Shown one piece after another: positions 4,368 through 16,419 of a stretch of DNA of 64,000 nucleotides. This stretch comes from Salinispira sp. (lineage in GTDB: Bacteria > Spirochaetota > Spirochaetia > DSM-27196 > Salinispiraceae): assembly GCA_965602015.1 (NCBI GenBank), contig OZ271918.1, forward strand, positions 3,104,001 through 3,168,000, read 5' to 3'. Position numbers and translations under genes: made by a program. Under the pieces are notes generated by a model. That model saw nothing but the letters and a program-made list of their open reading frames with translations, made no database searches and had not been told where the DNA came from. The stretch's first letter is position 1; the number at the start of each line of letters is the position of its first letter.

Positions 4368-7300
4368 TTAGAAGGTCGGCGCCTGGAGATCCTTTCTGAT
4401 GTCGGGGTCGATCTGGACCGCGTCATCGAACTCCGGCGCGAGAATATATGTGAGATTCAGGAAGGCCAGCGGCCGGGCATCGGCCCGAACCGCGGTTTCC
4501 ACATCGCGATTCAGGTTCTCCGAGAGTTCGGCAGACCGGCTAAGGAAGAGCTGGCTTTGGGCCAGGAGATCCTCTGCATTCTGTCCGCCCTGGCGGTACA
4601 ATCGGTAGAGGGTCACGCCGAGATTGTTGTTGGCCCGGACCTGGAAATCTATCAGTGCGCGGTGGCGCTGATCCTCCTCAAGAAGGAAGGTTGATATGCT
4701 CCGTCGTTCTGCGGTGAGTTCTTCCAGGAGAATGCGATAGAGGCTTGCCGCATCAAAGTAATTCTGTCGCATGAACTGGGTGTTCGCCCGGGCGTACAGC
4801 AGGTTGATATTCGCGGTGGGTATGGACCCTTGTGCGGTATTAAACTCCCTGATCGCCTGGTCGAGAAGGGCCTGTTGCCGCATAAGATCCCGTTGATCGG
4901 CCAACTCTACTCTTGCGCCTTCGAGCCGCAGATCAAGATTGTTCGCCCGGTGAAGAGCAATAAATCCGAGCTTGTATGCCAGATCCTGCCGTTCCCGGAA
5001 GAGTTCCGGGTGGGTGTCCGGCCGGCCGTAGTCATTTTCCCTGGCCTGGGTGAAGTACTGGTAGGCCGCATCATAGTTGCTCGCTTCGTAGTAGTAAATA
5101 TCACCCAGAAGGGCGTACGCCCTTCCGAACATCGGCGATGCTTCAACCTTGCGGGCCTCCAGAGCCCTTTCGTATTCCTGCACCGCAGTGCGCAGCCGGG
5201 TTTCGGCGCTGAGGACTTCTTCGAGGCGATACAGGTTTTCCGCCTCCCGAATATACGTATCTACCTTCCGGGCAGTCTCGAAGCGGTCAAGAGGCCGCTG
5301 CAGCTCCAGTTCCTCGAAGAGCTCCCGGGCATTTCGGAGGGCGGTAATTTCATCCTGCAGATCGCCGGTCAGCCGGGAATACCTGGCGCGATAATAGTGG
5401 ACTTCCGGAATAGTATCGTCCAGCTCCATGGCCCGATTAATCACCCGGAGGGCATCCTCCTGAAGGGACGCGACGGTTTCATCGCCCCGCAAACCGGCGA
5501 CGAACTGATTTATCAGTTCCTCGCCTCCGCCGGGACCGACGCCGCCTATGCCTTCTTCGCTCAAATCAAGCAGGAATCCTCCGAGCTCGGTCATCCCCCG
5601 GGGATCAAGTTGTGCCCTCTCATCGGTGAGGAATAAATCTTTCAGATTTAAGGCGTCTTCGATATTACGGGTGTTGATAAAATAGCGCAGCATCCTGAAC
5701 AGAAGCTCATCGGACTGGCCGTTGCGGTCGATCAGGCTTGCGTACTCATATCTGGCGGACTCAAAGTACTCAGCGCGCTGATCCTCATCTCTGGTAAGAA
5801 TGCCCCACTCAAGGTACGCGTCACCCTGAGTGATGCGGGCATCGTAATCCCAGGGATCTTCCCTCAGCAGACGACGGAGATATTCAATGGCCGTTGGATA
5901 GTCCCGAAGATCGTAAATCGCGAAATCCGCGTATCGAAGAATTCCCTCCCGGTTGAGCGGGTCAATATCGTCGGACAAGAGGGTTTCGTACTTTTCCCGG
6001 GCAAGGGCAAACTGCCGCTGATCAGAAAATGCTTCGGCATACTCCAGAAAGCGGGAGTTGACCGGCCAGATTTCATATGCCTGCTCAAACAGCCTGTTGG
6101 CCTGCTGGTATTCCTGGAGTTCGATATTTTCCAGACCCTGCTCATACAGGTTCCGGGCGAAAAGCGGCTGGTATATAAATCGGTATCCGAGAAACAGCAT
6201 GGCCGCCAGCATGCCGGTTGCGGCCAGCACCAAGCGGAGCACCGGCCAAATGGTTTGGCTGAACTGGTAGGCAAAGCTCTTGCGTTCCTGCTCAAAATGT
6301 TCCCCGGTGCGTTTTTCATAACCCCGGGGTATTTCTATTTTTTTGCCGGAAATCTTACTGACGATTTTCGCGATATCCCGAGGGGGTTGCCGCTGGTACA
6401 ATGCCTCGATGAGGGGAAGGATTTCCTCAAAATCGTATTTCCCCCCGGCGATGATTTCCGAGGCTGCGATTTTTAAATTGAGAGGCAGATACGCGAGAGT
6501 ACTCTTGAGGTCGGAGAACTGATCATCGGTGATGGCGAAATCCGCGGCCTGGTCTTCTGCGGCGGCCTCTTCAAGCGCCTCTTCGACCATCGCCTCGGCT
6601 TCCGGAGACGCGGGTTCTTCTTCAGCGAAGTCTTCGGCGGCTTCGTCTTCCATGATCCCGAATTCCGCACCGAAATCTCCCATGGAAAACTCATCGCCAA
6701 AATCCGAACTGTCGAAATCCGAATCGAAGTCTCCAAAATCCTCGAGACCGCCTCCGGCCTCATCCGAAAAATCCGCTGACTCAAAATCCCCGGAATCAGC
6801 AAGACCATCTGTTGGGGCGGTTTCTGCAAATCCCTCAGCATCGAATGCCTCGTCGTCGCCCGGAGCGTCAAAATCTCCGAAATCACTGTCGGGCGACTCG
6901 TCGCTGAATTCGATGCCCTGATCAAAATCCGTATCGAAGGACGGCTCACTGAGATCTTCCGAAAGATCTCCGTCTAGGCTGTCGCCCAGTTCATCGGCGT
7001 CATCTATTGATTCAAAATCATCCAGGCCGTCACCGAGATCATCTGACAGATCACCGCCGAGATCGTCGCCGAGGCTGTCGCCCAGTTCATCGCCGCCGTC
7101 TATTGATTCAAAATCATCCAGGCCGTCACCGAGATCATCTGACAGATCGCCGCCGAGATCGTCGCCGAGGCTGTTGCCCAGTTCATCGCCGCCGTCAATA
7201 GTTTCAAAATCATCCAGGCCGTCACCGAGATCATCTGACAGATCACCGTCGAGATCGTCGCCGAGGCTGTCGCCCAGTTCATCGGCGTCATCTATTGATT

Positions 7301-8024
7301 CAAAATCATCCAGGCCGTCACCGAGATCCTCTGACAGATCACCGTCGAGATCGTCGCCTAGGCCGTCGGCATCATCAGCAACGTCAAAATCATCGAATCC
7401 GCCGCCCAGATCGCCCGGGATGTCCCCCTCGAAATCTTCGGGCACATCATCGTCGGGGCTGGCGGAGAAATCATCGGGGACGTTTTCAGGAGAGGTGAAC
7501 TCATCGGCGCCGTCGAACTCGTCTGCGCCGAAGTCTTCCATGGAAAGGTCGTCGCCCAGATCCAGACCGTCGTCGGATTCCTCATCCATGTCGGGGCTGT
7601 TAAAACTGGAAAGGTCGGTTTCTGCTTCTTGTTCTGCTTGTTGATCATCGGCGGCGTCAAGACCGAAGTCGCCGCCGAAAACGTCCGATGAGAAATCCTC
7701 ATCTTCCGGGGCATCCAGCCCAAAATCCGTCAGCTGCGGTTCTTCTTCGTCGAGTCCGAGATCGCTGAGAAAATCCGCATCCGGGGCAGGCATGCCCTCG
7801 ATCGATTCATCCTGGGTATCATCCGTTAGACCGTCACTGAGATTGGAAAAAAAGTCCTGTGCGACAGCCTCTGCGGAATCGGCTGGGGACCCCGAGTCAA
7901 ACTCTCCAGCCCGGGGCGCTTCAACGGCCTCGACCTGCTCGCCGCGCTCCGCAGCTATTTCAGGCTCGTTACCCGTGCGAACGAGAGATTCGTTAAACTG
8001 TTGCAGGGACTCATTGCTGGGCAT
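4368..8024 (-). CDS. flcA: Periplasmic flagellar collar protein FlcA-like (acidic N-terminus, one TM helix, TPR region)
   Basis: About 500-aa Asp/Glu-rich N-terminus; block LAYLPLNLKIA...KIEIPRGYEKRTGEHFE; TM helix; long TPR-like C-terminus. This matches the spirochaete FlcA architecture. Confidence 0.7.
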   Translation of the reverse strand: MPSNESLQQFNESLVRTGNEPEIAAERGEQVEAVEAPRAGEFDSGSPADSAEAVAQDFFSNLSDGLTDDTQDESIEGMPAPDADFLSDLGLDEEEPQLTDFGLDAPEDEDFSSDVFGGDFGLDAADDQQAEQEAETDLSSFNSPDMDEESDDGLDLGDDLSMEDFGADEFDGADEFTSPENVPDDFSASPDDDVPEDFEGDIPGDLGGGFDDFDVADDADGLGDDLDGDLSEDLGDGLDDFESIDDADELGDSLGDDLDGDLSDDLGDGLDDFETIDGGDELGNSLGDDLGGDLSDDLGDGLDDFESIDGGDELGDSLGDDLGGDLSDDLGDGLDDFESIDDADELGDSLDGDLSEDLSEPSFDTDFDQGIEFSDESPDSDFGDFDAPGDDEAFDAEGFAETAPTDGLADSGDFESADFSDEAGGGLEDFGDFDSDFDSSDFGDEFSMGDFGAEFGIMEDEAAEDFAEEEPASPEAEAMVEEALEEAAAEDQAADFAITDDQFSDLKSTLAYLPLNLKIAASEIIAGGKYDFEEILPLIEALYQRQPPRDIAKIVSKISGKKIEIPRGYEKRTGEHFEQERKSFAYQFSQTIWPVLRLVLAATGMLAAMLFLGYRFIYQPLFARNLYEQGLENIELQEYQQANRLFEQAYEIWPVNSRFLEYAEAFSDQRQFALAREKYETLLSDDIDPLNREGILRYADFAIYDLRDYPTAIEYLRRLLREDPWDYDARITQGDAYLEWGILTRDEDQRAEYFESARYEYASLIDRNGQSDELLFRMLRYFINTRNIEDALNLKDLFLTDERAQLDPRGMTELGGFLLDLSEEGIGGVGPGGGEELINQFVAGLRGDETVASLQEDALRVINRAMELDDTIPEVHYYRARYSRLTGDLQDEITALRNARELFEELELQRPLDRFETARKVDTYIREAENLYRLEEVLSAETRLRTAVQEYERALEARKVEASPMFGRAYALLGDIYYYEASNYDAAYQYFTQARENDYGRPDTHPELFRERQDLAYKLGFIALHRANNLDLRLEGARVELADQRDLMRQQALLDQAIREFNTAQGSIPTANINLLYARANTQFMRQNYFDAASLYRILLEELTAERRSISTFLLEEDQRHRALIDFQVRANNNLGVTLYRLYRQGGQNAEDLLAQSQLFLSRSAELSENLNRDVETAVRADARPLAFLNLTYILAPEFDDAVQIDPDIRKDLQAPTF
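6976..7363. repeat. 96-bp in-frame tandem repeat, about 4 copies, inside the flcA-like gene
   Basis: AGGCTGT(C/T)GCCCAGTTCATCG recurs at 6976, 7072, 7168 and 7264. Encodes the 32-aa unit SDDLGDGLDDFESIDxxDELGDSLGDDLxGDL. Confidence 0.95.
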
Positions 8025-9556: not shown

Positions 9557-9587
9557 CATTGTTTGCCGGAGACGGGGGTTGCCGACG

Positions 9588-9641
9588 GCGACTGGCGGCA
9601 GCGGTTTGCGATGTTAGCTGCCGGGTGCGACTGGCGGCAGC
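9588..9641. repeat. 15-bp direct repeat, two copies 39 bp apart, intergenic
   Basis: GCGACTGGCGGCAGC at 9588-9602 and 9627-9641, just upstream of TATAAT (9655-9660). Confidence 0.7.
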
Positions 9642-9706
9642 CCCGAAAATGGGCTATAATTTCGCCGGAAACGAATTTTCACCAATTAAAAACCCGGAGG
9701 CAGACG

Positions 9707-10615
9707 ATGGGAACCGTTAGGGACGTTTACGGCCACATTGCGCTCGAACTTGTAAAAAATAGTGTACACAGCAGCCAGATCGAACCGGATGCGGTCTACC
9801 AGGAAGCCAACAAATCGAACCGCCGCATTCTGAACAAAATTATCAGCGATCTGTTATTGCCGGAAAGCACAATCCTGGGCTTCCACAACCTGCAGAGACT
9901 GCATAATCTCGCAGAGGAGGGCAAATCCTGCCTCATACTCATGGAGCATTACAGCAACTTCGACCTTCCGAACTTGTATTATTTACTTGAAAACCTCTAT
10001 CCCGGCGGAGAAGAAATCGGCGATGACATCATCGCCATGGCCGGTATGAAATTAAATGTCGAAAGCGATTTCGTACGGGCATTTACCGAAGCCTATACCC
10101 GAATAGTCATCTATCCTTCCCGAAGCCTTTCAAACCTGGAAGGTAGCGAAGCCTATGAAGCAGAACGAAGCAAAAGCCGGAAGATAAACATGGCGGCATT
10201 GCACGAAATGGTGCGTCAAAAACATGCGGGTAAGATTATTCTACTGTTCCCCAGCGGGACCAGATATCGACCGGGCGTGGAAGAAACCCGCAGGGGTCTG
10301 GCTGAAGTCGATTCGTATATAAAAGGCTTCGACTATATCCTTCCCATAGGAATCGCCGGCAACACCCTCAGAATCAACACCAGCGGGAGCATGAGCGAGG
10401 ACTACATCCAGAAGGACTGCATGGTTTTCGCCGCCGCCGAAGTGCATGACGCCAAAGAATGGCGAAACGGGATCCGGGAAAAGGCGCCTGAGGGAACCGA
10501 CTCAAAGCAGTTCGTCGCAGATGCAGTGATGAAATGGCTTTCGGATCTTCACAACGAAGCTGAGGACTACCGTCAAAAGCACCTGCCCGAGGGTTATCCC
10601 GACAGCGTACTATGA
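9707..10615 (+). CDS. Glycerol-3-phosphate O-acyltransferase (spirochaete/plastid-like soluble type)
   Basis: HX4D motif EHYSNFD; LLFPSGTRYRP. Start moved to ATG 9707, which has SD GGAGG. Confidence 0.8.
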   Translation: MGTVRDVYGHIALELVKNSVHSSQIEPDAVYQEANKSNRRILNKIISDLLLPESTILGFHNLQRLHNLAEEGKSCLILMEHYSNFDLPNLYYLLENLYPGGEEIGDDIIAMAGMKLNVESDFVRAFTEAYTRIVIYPSRSLSNLEGSEAYEAERSKSRKINMAALHEMVRQKHAGKIILLFPSGTRYRPGVEETRRGLAEVDSYIKGFDYILPIGIAGNTLRINTSGSMSEDYIQKDCMVFAAAEVHDAKEWRNGIREKAPEGTDSKQFVADAVMKWLSDLHNEAEDYRQKHLPEGYPDSVL

Positions 10616-11539
10616 GGCGGGACGGGATTTTCTTCGGTCAAGGGCGTACAGCCTGACCTGTTCGGCAAACCCCATCCGCTCCAGGAGCGAGCTGAGGTAC
10701 ACGCTTCCGCTCCAGTTCTCCAGGGTGATTATGTCTATGCTTTCTTCCGCCGATGCCTCTATGTAGCGTTCGATGAGGGTGGTGGCGATTCCCAGCCCCC
10801 GATATTGGGGCTCAATGTATATTTGCAGCATGTGGCCCACCGAGCGCTCAGAACTGAGTTCATCATGCAGGACCCACAAAAAACCGCAGATCTCCCCCCC
10901 CGGAAGAAAAACCCCCAGGATGTACGATCCGTTTTCCAGGTCATCAGCAGCCGGCAAGTGGTCCCGGCGAAATGAATACCAATACGAGGATTCCCGGGGG
11001 TCGGGGAAGATTTCAGCGAATACTTTTTTATCGAGATAGACAACGGTCTGCAATGTGGCCCGGTCCTCGACCTGGCAAATGGTGAAATCGCTGAGCACCA
11101 GGTCCTCACCTTCGAAAATATCGGCTTTAAGGGCTTCCAGTCCCCGGCTTTCCCTGATGCCGTTAAACCATTGAAGAACCCGGCTCTTCATTTGGCGGTC
11201 TTTAAAGAAGAACCACAATTTTTCCACTTCCCGGTGCTCTTTCAGGCAGTTTTTGAACTGGCGGAAAACTCCCCTGCCGCTTTGCAGAATGCTTTGAAGC
11301 TCGTGTTTCACGATGGGATTTTTCAGATCGGCGACGAAACGCTCCATCAGGTTATATCCGTCAACCGACCGCCATTCCGGTATTTCTTCCAGGTCAGGTT
11401 CTCCGTCAATAGCTTCGGCCTCGTCGCCACCGATGACCTTTCCCCGGTCCAGATCGAGGAAAAACAACTGGTCCTGATTTTCCATCCCGAATATGACCTG
11501 GTCGACAAGTTCTTTGCTTAATTCCATATCGCTGCGCAT
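10610..11539 (-). CDS. UPF0158-family domain fused to a C-terminal GNAT acetyltransferase
   Basis: N-terminus IFGMENQ...FLD...IPEWRSVDGYNLMERF...GRGVFRQFK; C-terminus IYIEPQYRGLGIATTL (acetyl-CoA motif) and ERMGF. Start at 11539 or 11527, just after the ProRS-like stop. Confidence 0.75.
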   Translation of the reverse strand: MRSDMELSKELVDQVIFGMENQDQLFFLDLDRGKVIGGDEAEAIDGEPDLEEIPEWRSVDGYNLMERFVADLKNPIVKHELQSILQSGRGVFRQFKNCLKEHREVEKLWFFFKDRQMKSRVLQWFNGIRESRGLEALKADIFEGEDLVLSDFTICQVEDRATLQTVVYLDKKVFAEIFPDPRESSYWYSFRRDHLPAADDLENGSYILGVFLPGGEICGFLWVLHDELSSERSVGHMLQIYIEPQYRGLGIATTLIERYIEASAEESIDIITLENWSGSVYLSSLLERMGFAEQVRLYALDRRKSRPAS

Positions 11540-11544
11540 AACTG

Positions 11545-13365
11545 TTAGTTCGCCTGCTCCGAGGGAAATCGATGGCCCTCTGCGAATCGCTCCTGCTCCA
11601 TTTCCTCCAGCTCTCGAATCTTCCCTTCCACGTGGTTCAACTGCAGTCGTGCCGGCGGACAAAGCCTACGGTGCCAAACCGCCACCTTTCCATCGTCCAA
11701 GGTCTGGCCTGAGACAATAATGCGCACCGGGACGCCCATCATATCCAATTCGCGAAATTTTTGCCCCAACGGGATTTTTCTGTCGTCATGGAGGATCGAT
11801 GCGCCGAGGCGCAAGTGAAGCTTGTCGCCGATTTCCCTGATGGTAGCGCTGCGGCCCACAACCAACAGCGCCGCCTTGTACGGCGCGATATTTATAGGCC
11901 AGAGAAAGCCGTTCTTCATCCGGTGAGCCTCCACAAGACTGGCCAGCAGCCTACCGAGGCCGATTCCGTACGCTCCCATTGAAGGATAGAATATTTGTCC
12001 CTTTGTATCATGCAGGGAAAAATCGAATTTCCGGCTAAAATACTCGCCGATGCGGTATACGCTGGCAATTTTTATGGTTTTTTCTAGCTCAAGTGCGCCG
12101 CCGCAGTGACGGCAGGTACAGTTTTTATCGACCTCGACAAAATCACCCACGTAGTCCCCGTCGAAATCCCGCCCGAAATTGACATTTATTAAAAACTTCC
12201 CCGGACTGCCTTGTGAGAAAACCAGATTGCTGCTCTCGCTGACCGTAAGATCCACAGCAGTCAAAAACCGGCCGCCCTGGTCCTCCATGGTAACCGGACG
12301 CTTCATGCCGACGGGGGTGAGAAATGCCTGTGCCGTCGGAGGGCCGGGTTTGCGGCGGCCCTTTTTCGGCCGCTGATACCGGGCATACCCAAGATCGTGA
12401 AGCTCCTGCTCTCCAAGCTCGGATATGATGGGCTCGCCGATTACCCGAGCGAGCTTATCGAGGGATATTTTTTTGTCTGAACGGTATACGGCGGCTACAT
12501 ACCCGTCCATTATCCGGTAGATTCCGCAGGTCGCAGTGCGGCTTTTTGGCAGGCCTTTCTGTTGACGAAAGCAGGAGAGACCAAAACAGTCGGGGTTCGT
12601 AATGATTTCCATCGGCAGGGGACGGCCGCTGGGATGGGCCGAGTTGGCGACAGCCACATCCTGGTTCGCGTTATAGCCGCAGGAGGGGCAGCGAACCAGA
12701 ACATCCTCTCCCCGTTCGTGCTTCATGAGGAAATCATACGAACTGGTGCCGCCGGTGAAATTGGCGGCACCTTCAGTTGAAGCGATATTCAGCCCGAGCT
12801 GCCGGAAAATACGGGAAAAAATCGCGAAGATTTTCGGCATAAAGTTATTCAACTCGGTAAAACTGCGGTGAAATGAGTAGCCGTCGCTCATGAGAAATTC
12901 CCGGGCCTTGAGAAGTCCGGATTCGTCGAGAGCCTCGTCGCGGAATTTATTCTGGAACTGAAAAAAGAAACGGGGAAGCTGCTCTACCGAAGATATGCTT
13001 CTGGCGAGCATTTCGATGCACGCCTCTTCGTGCATGGGAGCGAGAACCAGGTTATTGCCGTTATGGTCATTAAACCTCGTCAGTTCCCGGCTTATCATTC
13101 GGCTTCGGTCCGATCGGTCCCACAGGTCGCCGGGATTCACCAGAGGGAGGAGAATTTCTTCTCCACCCAAGGCACGGAACTCCTCGGCAATAATGTGGCC
13201 GATTTTCTTCATGACCATCATGCCGAGGGGCATAAAGGCGAATAGCCCGTCACCGATTTGCCTGATATAGCCTCCCTCCACAAGCATGCGGCTTCCCTCG
13301 AGACGATACTGCGGGGTCGGACCGGCATTCTGGGATGGTATGTGGAGAATTTGGCTCATTTTCAT
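11545..13365 (-). CDS. Prolyl-tRNA synthetase-like protein (bacterial type with INS domain), divergent paralog
   Basis: ProRS layout: GLFAFMPLG, LAPMHEE, KFRDE...REFLMSDGYSFH, CPSCGYNAN, INVNFGRD, MGAYGIGLGR, WPINIAPY, DDR. Several usually invariant residues are changed, so no proS symbol is given. Confidence 0.8.
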   Translation of the reverse strand: MKMSQILHIPSQNAGPTPQYRLEGSRMLVEGGYIRQIGDGLFAFMPLGMMVMKKIGHIIAEEFRALGGEEILLPLVNPGDLWDRSDRSRMISRELTRFNDHNGNNLVLAPMHEEACIEMLARSISSVEQLPRFFFQFQNKFRDEALDESGLLKAREFLMSDGYSFHRSFTELNNFMPKIFAIFSRIFRQLGLNIASTEGAANFTGGTSSYDFLMKHERGEDVLVRCPSCGYNANQDVAVANSAHPSGRPLPMEIITNPDCFGLSCFRQQKGLPKSRTATCGIYRIMDGYVAAVYRSDKKISLDKLARVIGEPIISELGEQELHDLGYARYQRPKKGRRKPGPPTAQAFLTPVGMKRPVTMEDQGGRFLTAVDLTVSESSNLVFSQGSPGKFLINVNFGRDFDGDYVGDFVEVDKNCTCRHCGGALELEKTIKIASVYRIGEYFSRKFDFSLHDTKGQIFYPSMGAYGIGLGRLLASLVEAHRMKNGFLWPINIAPYKAALLVVGRSATIREIGDKLHLRLGASILHDDRKIPLGQKFRELDMMGVPVRIIVSGQTLDDGKVAVWHRRLCPPARLQLNHVEGKIRELEEMEQERFAEGHRFPSEQAN

Positions 13366-13373
13366 GTACTGCC

Positions 13374-13402
13374 ATTGTAATTTGCCTTCGCTCTGCTGTC
13401 CA
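13374..13402 (-). promoter_or_regulatory. sigma70-type promoter of the ProRS-like operon
   Basis: TGGACA (13402-13397), 17-nt spacer, TACAAT (13379-13374). ATG is 8 nt downstream with no SD. Confidence 0.55.
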
Positions 13403-13560: not shown

Positions 13561-14862
<1,302 letters not shown>

Positions 14863-14896: not shown

Positions 14897-14924
14897 ACCC
14901 GGAGCCCATGCTCCGGGTTTTTTT
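14897..14924 (+). terminator. Intrinsic terminator of eno
   Basis: ACCCGGAGC-ccat-GCTCCGGGT followed by T6. Confidence 0.8.
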
Positions 14925-15351
14925 AATATTCAACGGTGTCATCCCAGAAAAATTCAGATTCACGGGGCAGTATGGATTCAAGCAGAAATCCGGTTTCGGC
15001 CTGGAAGGTACTTATGTGATAATCTCCGGGGGCCGATACCGGCAATACCGAAGCGGCCACCAGAAATTCGGCTTCCCGGTATGCCAATCTCCGGGTGCTG
15101 AGGCTGAAACCGACCTGGGATATAAAGTAGACTGCGGCACCCAGAACAAGGACTGCGGCAGCAGCCCGGGCGGCTAGGGCAGGGCCGCGACGAAACGGCT
15201 GCGGCGCCCGTCTGGAATAGCCGGGCCGGGGCTCTGCTCCTGCTGCGGCGATACGCCGATCGAGCTCGGAACGGCCGGAGTTGCGCAGCATGCCGATGAC
15301 CTCATCTGAGCTGTATGTTCCCTGCCTATGACGAAATTGTCTCCTACTCAT
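14923..15351 (-). CDS. Putative membrane anti-sigma factor
   Basis: Basic N-terminus and one TM helix (AAAAVLVLGAAVYFI). ATG 15351 has SD GGAGG and overlaps the ECF sigma stop. Confidence 0.6.
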   Translation of the reverse strand: MSRRQFRHRQGTYSSDEVIGMLRNSGRSELDRRIAAAGAEPRPGYSRRAPQPFRRGPALAARAAAAVLVLGAAVYFISQVGFSLSTRRLAYREAEFLVAASVLPVSAPGDYHISTFQAETGFLLESILPRESEFFWDDTVEY

Positions 15352-15907
15352 GTTTTCCTCCCTCGACTTCACGGCCATAGAGCCTGTTGAACTGGCGGGC
15401 CAATCCTTTCCTTCCCGCAGAAAGGCGTGATTTAACCGTGCCCTCAGGCAGCTCCAGTATGCTGGCCACTTGGGAAACCTGCATGCCCTCCAGCTCTTTG
15501 AGCAGGAGAGGAATTCGAAGCCGCTCCGGAAGTGCCATCAACGCATCGATAACCGCCCTTCTCTTCTCATCGCGTTCCAGGACTTCTTCCGGACCGGAAT
15601 AGGGGCTGGCGGCGATGGTCAGGAAATCATGATTCTCAACAGATTCCCTGCGCCTTCTGGTCCTGCGCATCGCATCAAGAGCGGCATTGCGGCAAACAGT
15701 AAAAAGCCAGGTCTTGAACCCATCGGGGCCATGAAAGCTATTGAAATTCAGATAGGCGCGGAGCAGCCCTTCCTGAAGGCTGTCCTCAGCTTCATGGTAA
15801 TTGCCCCGATGAAGAACAAACAGATAGCGTCGAATCGACGGGAGATGAGGTGCAATAAGCTCCCCTATCTCTTCCCGCCGATTCCGACTCTGTGCGGAAT
15901 CATGCAT
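15344..15907 (-). CDS. ECF (sigma24-type) RNA polymerase sigma factor
   Basis: AEDSLQE, FKTWLFTVCRN (region 2); LPERLR...LELPEGTVKSRLSAGR (region 4). Confidence 0.92.
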   Translation of the reverse strand: MHDSAQSRNRREEIGELIAPHLPSIRRYLFVLHRGNYHEAEDSLQEGLLRAYLNFNSFHGPDGFKTWLFTVCRNAALDAMRRTRRRRESVENHDFLTIAASPYSGPEEVLERDEKRRAVIDALMALPERLRIPLLLKELEGMQVSQVASILELPEGTVKSRLSAGRKGLARQFNRLYGREVEGGKHE

Positions 15908-16419
15908 TAATCCGCGTGCTGGTAAATGAAGCGCAGAGTTGGAAGGAGCTCTGGCCGGGCTGCGCGGATCCGGTCGTCAAGGAGCCTCATGTCCATACCA
16001 CGTTCTCCAAGACCTCTGCCAAACTGCTTCATCTGGGCCCATCGGCGCTGACCGAGGATTTCCTGCAGCTCTATACCTCGACGGATCTCCGCCATCCGCA
16101 GCTGGATTTCGAATTCGATTCCCTGCCGAATGAGATCTTCAATTTCTTCGAGGTCCGGGTTTTGCTCTACCATTTCCCGGGAAATCTGCGCTCTCAGCAC
16201 TTCCAACTCGGCAGTCGGAATGCGTCGAGATTCGACAAACCGGTTTTGTACTTCATTTATTGCTTCGATTTCCTCTTCGCTGAATCTCAGGCGCTCGAGA
16301 TTTTCAATAATTTCCCGGTCCGCCCGGTCTCCACGGTGATTCTGCCCAAAAAGCACGGCGGGCAGCACGAGCAATAGGGAGAGTCCGATGCCGATTCGCA
16401 ATAGAGTATTGTTTTTCAT
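15907..16419 (-). CDS. Periplasmic Spy/CpxP/ZraP-like helical protein
   Basis: Signal peptide; LRFSEEE...I and ILGQRRW resemble the paired LTxxQ motifs; NPDLEEIEDLI. Stop overlaps the sigma ATG (TAATG). Confidence 0.7.
   Translation of the reverse strand: MKNNTLLRIGIGLSLLLVLPAVLFGQNHRGDRADREIIENLERLRFSEEEIEAINEVQNRFVESRRIPTAELEVLRAQISREMVEQNPDLEEIEDLIRQGIEFEIQLRMAEIRRGIELQEILGQRRWAQMKQFGRGLGERGMDMRLLDDRIRAARPELLPTLRFIYQHAD

Follow-up and report, generated by a model that had tools for sequence, protein, structure and literature searches.

Characterised synthetase paralogs such as HisZ, EpmA, GluQ and ProRSx each have a biology of their own. HisZ and EpmA, which serve here as models for the two leading readings, are class II paralogs that stopped charging tRNA, and the anticodon-binding domain has been dropped in both, whereas the prolyl-tRNA synthetase (ProRS) paralog described here keeps every domain. 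Both are listed among the synthetase paralogs in a review whose table has ProRSx as its only entry for ProRS (PMC9437257, available part). ProRSx of Streptomyces is a paralog derived from bacterial-type ProRS, and it charges proline onto a linked tRNA-ProX (PMC9437257, PMC10404621). ProRS1 and ProRS2 of B. thuringiensis are a P-type (bacterial) and an E-type (archaeal/eukaryote-type) enzyme in one genome; each of them is active, and R144 is intact (PMC11229370). The genome examined here likewise holds one protein of each type, although its P-type copy has no R144 equivalent.

Full-length duplicates that reside beside a housekeeping enzyme are known from archaea as LeuRS-I of Sulfolobaceae and LeuRS2 of Halobacteria, in which the editing domain is disrupted, the tRNA-binding domain is divergent and the role is given as unknown in the available part of the review (PMC9437257). 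LeuRS-I of Sulfolobaceae is, by analogy, the nearest counterpart of the present gene, which is also a full-length duplicate with a disrupted editing site beside a housekeeping enzyme. The LeuRS duplicates differ in being class I and archaeal, and in the ProRS paralog the amino-acid pocket is changed too. In addition, LeuRS-I makes adenylate and binds tRNA (PMC9437257), while the ProRS paralog is known from its sequence and a structural model. The literature searched, a set with few subscription papers that included PMC5388404 and PMC11580382, yielded no account of a ProRS paralog in spirochaetes.

The gene lies in a 64,000-nt stretch of Salinispira sp. DNA, referred to as the window (Table 1). 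As an earlier note on this DNA had stated, the reading frame is intact, with 606 uninterrupted residues, and FRDE, REF and YGIG..R are all retained. The protein has the three-domain architecture of P-type ProRS, and Pfam matched its class II core and anticodon domain, while the editing domain PF04073 was not matched in the INS domain. Scores fell below both NCBIfam cut-offs for ProRS (301 against 306.7 for TIGR00409, 377 against 558 for PRK09194); unlike the query, main-clade members of its family pass the former. An AlphaFold2 model built on a 105-sequence alignment reached a pLDDT of 94.8 and a pTM of 0.92, and its best PDB match was Enterococcus faecalis ProRS, the enzyme that the earlier note had suggested for comparison (2J3L; TM 0.86, rmsd 2.6 Å, 28% identity). 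The paralog is thus predicted to retain the entire bacterial ProRS fold. It shares this fold, along with R142, E144, F157 and R472, with canonical P-type enzymes (2J3L/2J3M of E. faecalis, 5ZNJ of S. aureus, 5UCM of P. aeruginosa), from which it differs by replacement of T111, R146, R148, R153, E211, E432, K279 and H391, and by an added NNF(F/M)P motif.

Table 1. Features of the paralog and its locus (window coordinates).
Feature	Position	Strand	Remarks and basis
ProRS-paralog ORF	11545..13365	-	606 aa, P-type: catalytic, INS and anticodon-binding domains
Sigma70-like promoter	13374..13402	-	TGGACA-17-TACAAT, ends 8 nt before ATG, no Shine-Dalgarno; sequence scan
M111	13033..13035	-	Replaces proline-binding Thr of TxE loop; alignment, T in 115/115 canonical
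Motif-2 loop R142-K153	12907..12942	-	RDEALDESGLLK; acceptor-stem arginines lost, R153K; alignment
Clade motif H166-P177	12835..12870	-	HRSFTELNNFMP; runs into helix 169-189; alignment, model
INS domain	12130..12648	-	Without K279, GAN and gatekeeper His; no PF04073 match; Pfam, alignment
Basic insert RPKKGRRKPG	12343..12372	-	Residues 332-341; basic in 8/8 subclade sequences
Strand T430-G440	12046..12078	-	K432 replaces metal- and ribose-binding Glu; alignment
Anticodon-binding domain	11596..11889	-	DDR and K536 kept; G534, K/R554 and E562 lost; Pfam, alignment
UPF0158-GNAT gene	10610..11539	-	5 nt downstream of paralog; Pfam, locus comparison
Acyltransferase (PF01553)	9563..10615	+	Convergent, part of conserved locus; Pfam, locus comparison
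Enolase	13570..14862	+	Divergent, marks conserved locus; locus comparison

Residues were compared with 115 canonical P-type ProRS: 74 reference loci, 25 sequences from the class and 16 from the phylum's other classes. The reference loci are what remained of 80 after removal of five that were short or unparsed and of one that belongs to the paralog clade; the 80-locus scan took in 2 of 64 parts of the contig database and supplies outgroups, not the range of the family. Positions T111, R146, R153, K160, G202, E211, K279, G384, H391 and E432 are invariant in all 115 and are all replaced in the query, the replacements including T111M, R146L, R153K, E211D, K279T, H391F and E432K. The catalytic changes that the earlier note had listed relative to canonical enzymes are borne out by this alignment. 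PTHEE has become PMHEE (M111-H-E113; Thr in 115/115 canonical), and the motif-2 loop reads RDEALDESGLLK, with canonical R146, R148 and R153 conserved in 115, 113 and 115 of the 115, respectively. Likewise, GIEVGHIF.LG has become TIKIASVYRIG, where E432, G434 and F437 occur in 115, 113 and 114 canonical sequences.

The roles of these residues are known from other ProRS. In the M. tuberculosis enzyme, Thr111 and Glu113 bind the amino group of proline, the metal is held by Glu422, His425 and waters that Glu211 positions, and the adenylate is held by Glu144, Phe157, Arg142 and Arg462 (PMC13629369, available part). Mapped through E. faecalis and S. aureus alignments, the query equivalents are M111 and E113, then K432, S435 and D211, and finally E144, F157, R142 and R472. 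The metal-binding Glu before motif 3 is therefore not retained (K432), nor is the acceptor-stem contact R144 of the motif-2 RPR, where the query reads L146-D-E148. An R144A mutation lowers charging by 270-fold to over 1000-fold (PMC11229370), and the query has Leu (L146) at that position. By their known roles, the replaced residues would compromise the binding of proline, recognition of the acceptor stem, metal coordination and editing alike. The adenine site, in contrast to these, appears largely retained, with the motif-2 Arg, the adenine-contacting Glu and Phe, and the motif-3 Arg all in place. Judged by residue roles in other ProRS, the paralog likely no longer charges tRNA-Pro.

Another enzyme is available for that task. 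The host genome, a single contig that is 99.67% complete, was found to have no canonical P-type proS. The earlier note had taken the gene for a paralog, a claim that would fall if it were the only ProRS present, and had suggested a search for a second, canonical proS; a second ProRS is indeed encoded, but it is of the E-type. The E-type gene (C1:3285307-3286761) is complete, scores 591 bits against a cut-off of 437 and, from its sequence, is taken to be the genome's working enzyme. Three ordinary tRNA-Pro genes with C1:G72 and A73 are present. Among 46 ARAGORN calls, C1:G72/A73 was seen by eye in these three only and no ProRSx-type tRNA was observed; a relaxed ARAGORN scan gave noise only, and no tRNA gene is linked to the paralog locus. 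Two extra tRNA-Leu calls (G000:C1:1585127-1585223 and 3184690-3184778) lack normal tRNA motifs and are probably false. An EpmA/GenX-like gene occurs at G000:C1:185378-186346 (L341), with a score of 251 bits that is under the cut-off of 287.

Although both derive from bacterial-type ProRS, identity with ProRSx was rejected, as there is no linked tRNA, none of that type among the 46 calls, and the proline-binding Thr is lost. For the function of the gene, the earlier note had left three possibilities open. Its repurposed-enzyme and regulatory readings stay, while a tRNA synthetase of different specificity is the weakest of the three: residues that contact the acceptor stem and the anticodon have been relaxed instead of becoming fixed, and no tRNA that could serve as its partner was observed.

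The changes that the earlier note had listed in the accessory domains are also present. The INS domain is without the editing Lys (K279T; K in 115/115 canonical) and GAN (now SQG), and carries the basic insert RPKKGRRKPG; the loss of H391 (H391F; H in 115/115 canonical) was absent from the earlier note. Published work (10.1101/2020.09.11.293571, available part) describes a K279A variant as deficient in editing and assigns the gatekeeper role to H369; both residues are lost in the query. The editing-factor signature (Lys, His, GXXXP) is likewise missing, given K279T, H391F and the lack of a Gly four residues before P351. In the anticodon domain, IPLGQKF and VAVWHR are present as reported, and E562, found in 111/115 canonical sequences, is gone. 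K/R554 of this domain is relaxed in the main clade (19/52 versus 106/115 canonical). The INS averages 172 aa in the query's own subclade versus 151, and basic character has increased in both the INS and the anticodon domain.

A profile search of the whole genome found no PF04073 editing domain and no free editing protein, therefore post-transfer editing of Ala-tRNA-Pro may be absent. The paralog might support the editing-less E-type enzyme in the manner of the B. thuringiensis pair, either as an auxiliary ProRS or by editing Ala-tRNA-Pro in trans. Genomes with P- and E-type ProRS that are both active are on record (PMC11229370), and in carriers G030, G012, G074, G092 and G106 a single PF04073 match presumably represents the paralog's INS. 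Such a role is plausible for the main clade of the family, where confidence in it is higher. The query, however, is without T111, R146, R148, E432, K279, H391 and GAN, and its INS is unmatched by PF04073. Moreover, 15 carriers encode a canonical P-type ProRS that brings an INS of its own, and free editing proteins occur in many carriers. For the query, this explanation is considered very improbable. Editing in trans as the reason for retention was rejected, as no complementarity with free editing proteins was found.

The phylogeny suggested in the earlier note placed the query inside a separate paralog clade, split from housekeeping-type P-type ProRS. In a tree of 84 P-type proteins of the class, 59 paralog sequences separate from 25 of housekeeping type on a branch of 0.55 with support 1.0, and the paralog clade remains monophyletic when outside sequences are added (68/68, support 0.82; 72/72, support 0.86). 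Members were sequence-checked in 22 families of class Spirochaetia. In a sample of 131 class genomes, each at least 97% complete, 41 carry the paralog (32 sequence-checked and nine assigned by score and family), and in all 41 a further ProRS is encoded, which is of the E-type in 27 and canonical P-type in 15, one genome having both. Thus, in contrast to canonical P-type ProRS, the paralog is not the sole ProRS in these near-complete genomes. On the other side, five fragmented bins (G025, G040, G042, G044 and G063; 89–96% complete, from a 70-genome order sample) show it without another ProRS. In the phylum sample outside the class, there was at most one match per genome, all scoring under the clade members, and the 16 that were fetched are canonical.

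The degree of alteration varies considerably across the family. Of the canonical catalytic invariants, 89% survive in the 54 main-clade sequences, whereas the query retains 70%, G002 46% and family f22 37%. Since the main clade keeps 89% of these invariants, as well as K279 in 52/54 sequences, most family members could be active enzymes. Within this family, which spans the class and in which most members keep the catalytic residues, neither point having been seen in the earlier note, the query's branch appears to be the most altered. Three f22 copies (L101, L318 and L319) are extremely eroded yet full-length, scoring ~170 bits to TIGR00409, with LNxFxP and four cysteines kept. The copy in G126 (L102), a genome that also has canonical P-type and E-type ProRS, is truncated at 449 aa. 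Genomes of f23 (L077, L080) have canonical P-type and E-type ProRS and no paralog-clade member.

What unites the clade is a short motif. LN[NGDI]F[FMLIVY]P (short form NNF(F/M)P) occurs in 72/72 clade sequences versus 0/115 canonical ones; individually, N173, F175 and P177 are found in 72/72 clade members and in 6, 2 and 3 of the 115, respectively. The query combines this motif with monophyly and the eno/UPF0158-GNAT locus. N173, F175, P177, S301 and G504 are kept in all 20 sequences from f1, f12 and f22, three lineages that eroded separately. For instance, f12 has lost the TxE Glu (E113), G002 the motif-2 Arg (R142) and f22 most of motif 2, and each keeps the motif. The motif may instead be structural, as it replaces the canonical Y176/D200/H210 set that adjoins the proline-binding loop.

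Within the clade, the query belongs to an eight-member subclade with 54–75% identity and 35% of all columns invariant. Eight replacements at or near the pocket (T111M, R153K, G202N, E211D, E432K, G434A, F437Y and L439I) are fixed in 8/8, and the tRNA and editing positions R146, R148, K279, H391 and E562 vary; because the eight sequences are related, the contrast describes a pattern and carries no statistical weight. Position 432 is Lys or Arg in 13/13 sequences of the query's family.

These fixed positions count toward a redirected, EpmA-like adenylating ligase that would activate a non-proline amino acid or other acid and transfer it to a non-tRNA acceptor at the new helix. E113, R142, E144, F157, M159, D161, Y163 and R472 are kept, the main clade retains the catalytic set, and the Lys or Arg at position 432 has a precedent in HisRS, where an Arg stands in for Mg2+. 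Against such a ligase, gene and motif were kept in independent lineages after the loss of E113, R142 or the motif-2 core, the genome already has an EpmA-like gene, albeit one below its cut-off, and the locus shows no link to a substrate pathway. A ligase is judged rather unlikely, yet it is the main rival of the favoured reading.

Whether the gene is under selection was addressed with one genome pair, in which dS is near saturation (1.6–2.2), other pairs being mostly saturated. Against G006, the NG86 estimates of dN/dS were 0.11 (256 codons) and 0.084 (393 codons). The earlier note had argued against simple decay, for which a ratio near 1 would be expected, and values of 0.08–0.11 agree with it. 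For the E-type ProRS, dN/dS against G006 was 0.027, with a dN one quarter of that of the paralog. A ratio of ~0.1 thus argues against a pseudogene, yet points to relaxation relative to the E-type enzyme. Two metagenome scans for further DNA to compare yielded nothing, with 0/119 loci matched by tblastn.

The paralog of the class is found mostly between a divergent enolase and the UPF0158-GNAT gene, with which the query is likely co-transcribed; the gap between paralog and GNAT is -56 to +24 nt in 45/46 loci with a detected GNAT start (starts picked by rule). A -10 box is located 5–9 nt before the start in 50/62 clade loci, versus 3/39 and 7/73 canonical loci and 298/2009 background ORFs, and a Shine-Dalgarno occurs in only 3/62 clade loci; a leaderless mRNA is predicted on these grounds. 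Since the same box directly precedes GNAT in 8/18 loci without the paralog (by eye), this promoter belongs to the operon rather than to the paralog. Many lineages lack the gene and show clean eno/GNAT junctions, which makes it dispensable. The paralog-less loci are dispersed across an enolase+GNAT tree whose deep support is weak and in which enolase shows signs of transfer, and this scatter fits ancestral presence with repeated loss. An apparent absence in G015 was rejected as a contig break.

The gene could be a dispensable relic of an older proS that is slowly eroding and is retained in part because it forms the leader ORF for UPF0158-GNAT in their operon. The graded erosion down to G002 and f22, the repeated absences that leave the promoter box directly before GNAT, the fourfold higher dN compared with the E-type enzyme, and the truncated copy in G126 are all in keeping with a relic. 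Conversely, dN/dS is ~0.1, the mean identity of the main clade equals that of the class's housekeeping P-type enzymes (50% each), GNAT is present without the paralog in many genomes, and decay is not expected to yield a new invariant motif and fixed replacements. A relic is thus regarded as quite improbable.

The relationship with the neighbouring gene was explored further. An obligate paralog-GNAT link was rejected, as UPF0158 occurs in many genomes without the paralog; it was also unmatched at E 0.001 in the f12, f22 and f32 carriers, although the f32 loci have the neighbour by BLAST. A gene fusion was rejected: the one fused entry, P0140 (860 aa), matches the separate proteins exactly apart from the join and is probably the product of a frameshift error, and no fusion turned up when longer proteins were searched, which is weak evidence. 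A complex prediction for the two proteins returned no answer (score 0.00) and carries no weight either way. An RNA element was rejected, with no Rfam match in nine loci, and an ESM Atlas query with the UPF0158 domain returned UPF0158 alone (0.79). The UPF0158-GNAT fusion protein itself (window 10610-11539; L322-L339) has an invariant MENQ motif, adjoins enolase class-wide and often has a leaderless-type promoter; in the literature searched, a single paper mentions UPF0158. Elsewhere in the window, the flagellar collar protein FlcA (4368-8024) contains an extended acidic stretch in which nearly identical units of the GDDLDGDLSDDLGDGLDDFES type are repeated; this gene and the named homologs of the paralog identify the organism as a spirochaete, from which its class is taken to be Spirochaetia. 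An ECF sigma factor region (14923-16419) has two unassigned flanking genes, possibly for an anti-sigma and a periplasmic protein.

Taken together, the favoured reading, to which a probability of roughly one half is given, is that of an intact, selected paralog that is a likely non-charging, nucleotide-binding pseudo-synthetase and docks on a partner through the NNF(F/M)P helix. It is favoured because the fold and the new motif, not the catalytic set, are common to all members. With a complete E-type ProRS in the same genome, charging would have been given up as the residues for proline, the tRNA acceptor, the metal and editing were lost. The remodelled pocket may bind ATP or AMP via the retained E144, F157, R142 and R472, K432 could take the place of the metal, and the clade-specific helix would dock on a putative partner, so that the protein would act as a regulator or scaffold in the way of HisZ or LeuRS-I.

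The paralog is real, conserved and apparently undescribed and, judging from its sequence, is a synthetase paralog that has probably left charging. A broader proposal, held tentatively and at somewhat less than even odds, is that it is an ancient, full-length ProRS paralog family of free-living spirochaetes that works outside protein synthesis via an invariant helix motif, and that the query's pocket was rewired again for a new ligand, with Lys in place of the metal, to become a new ligase or nucleotide sensor. The family spans 22 families whose members are named plain proline--tRNA ligase in databases, and cultured, non-pathogenic carriers exist, including Spirochaeta thermophila, S. africana and Alkalispirochaeta. 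With one shared motif across a natural series from intact-looking to fully eroded copies, it would offer a test of how a synthetase becomes a pseudo-enzyme and of the role that it takes on later.
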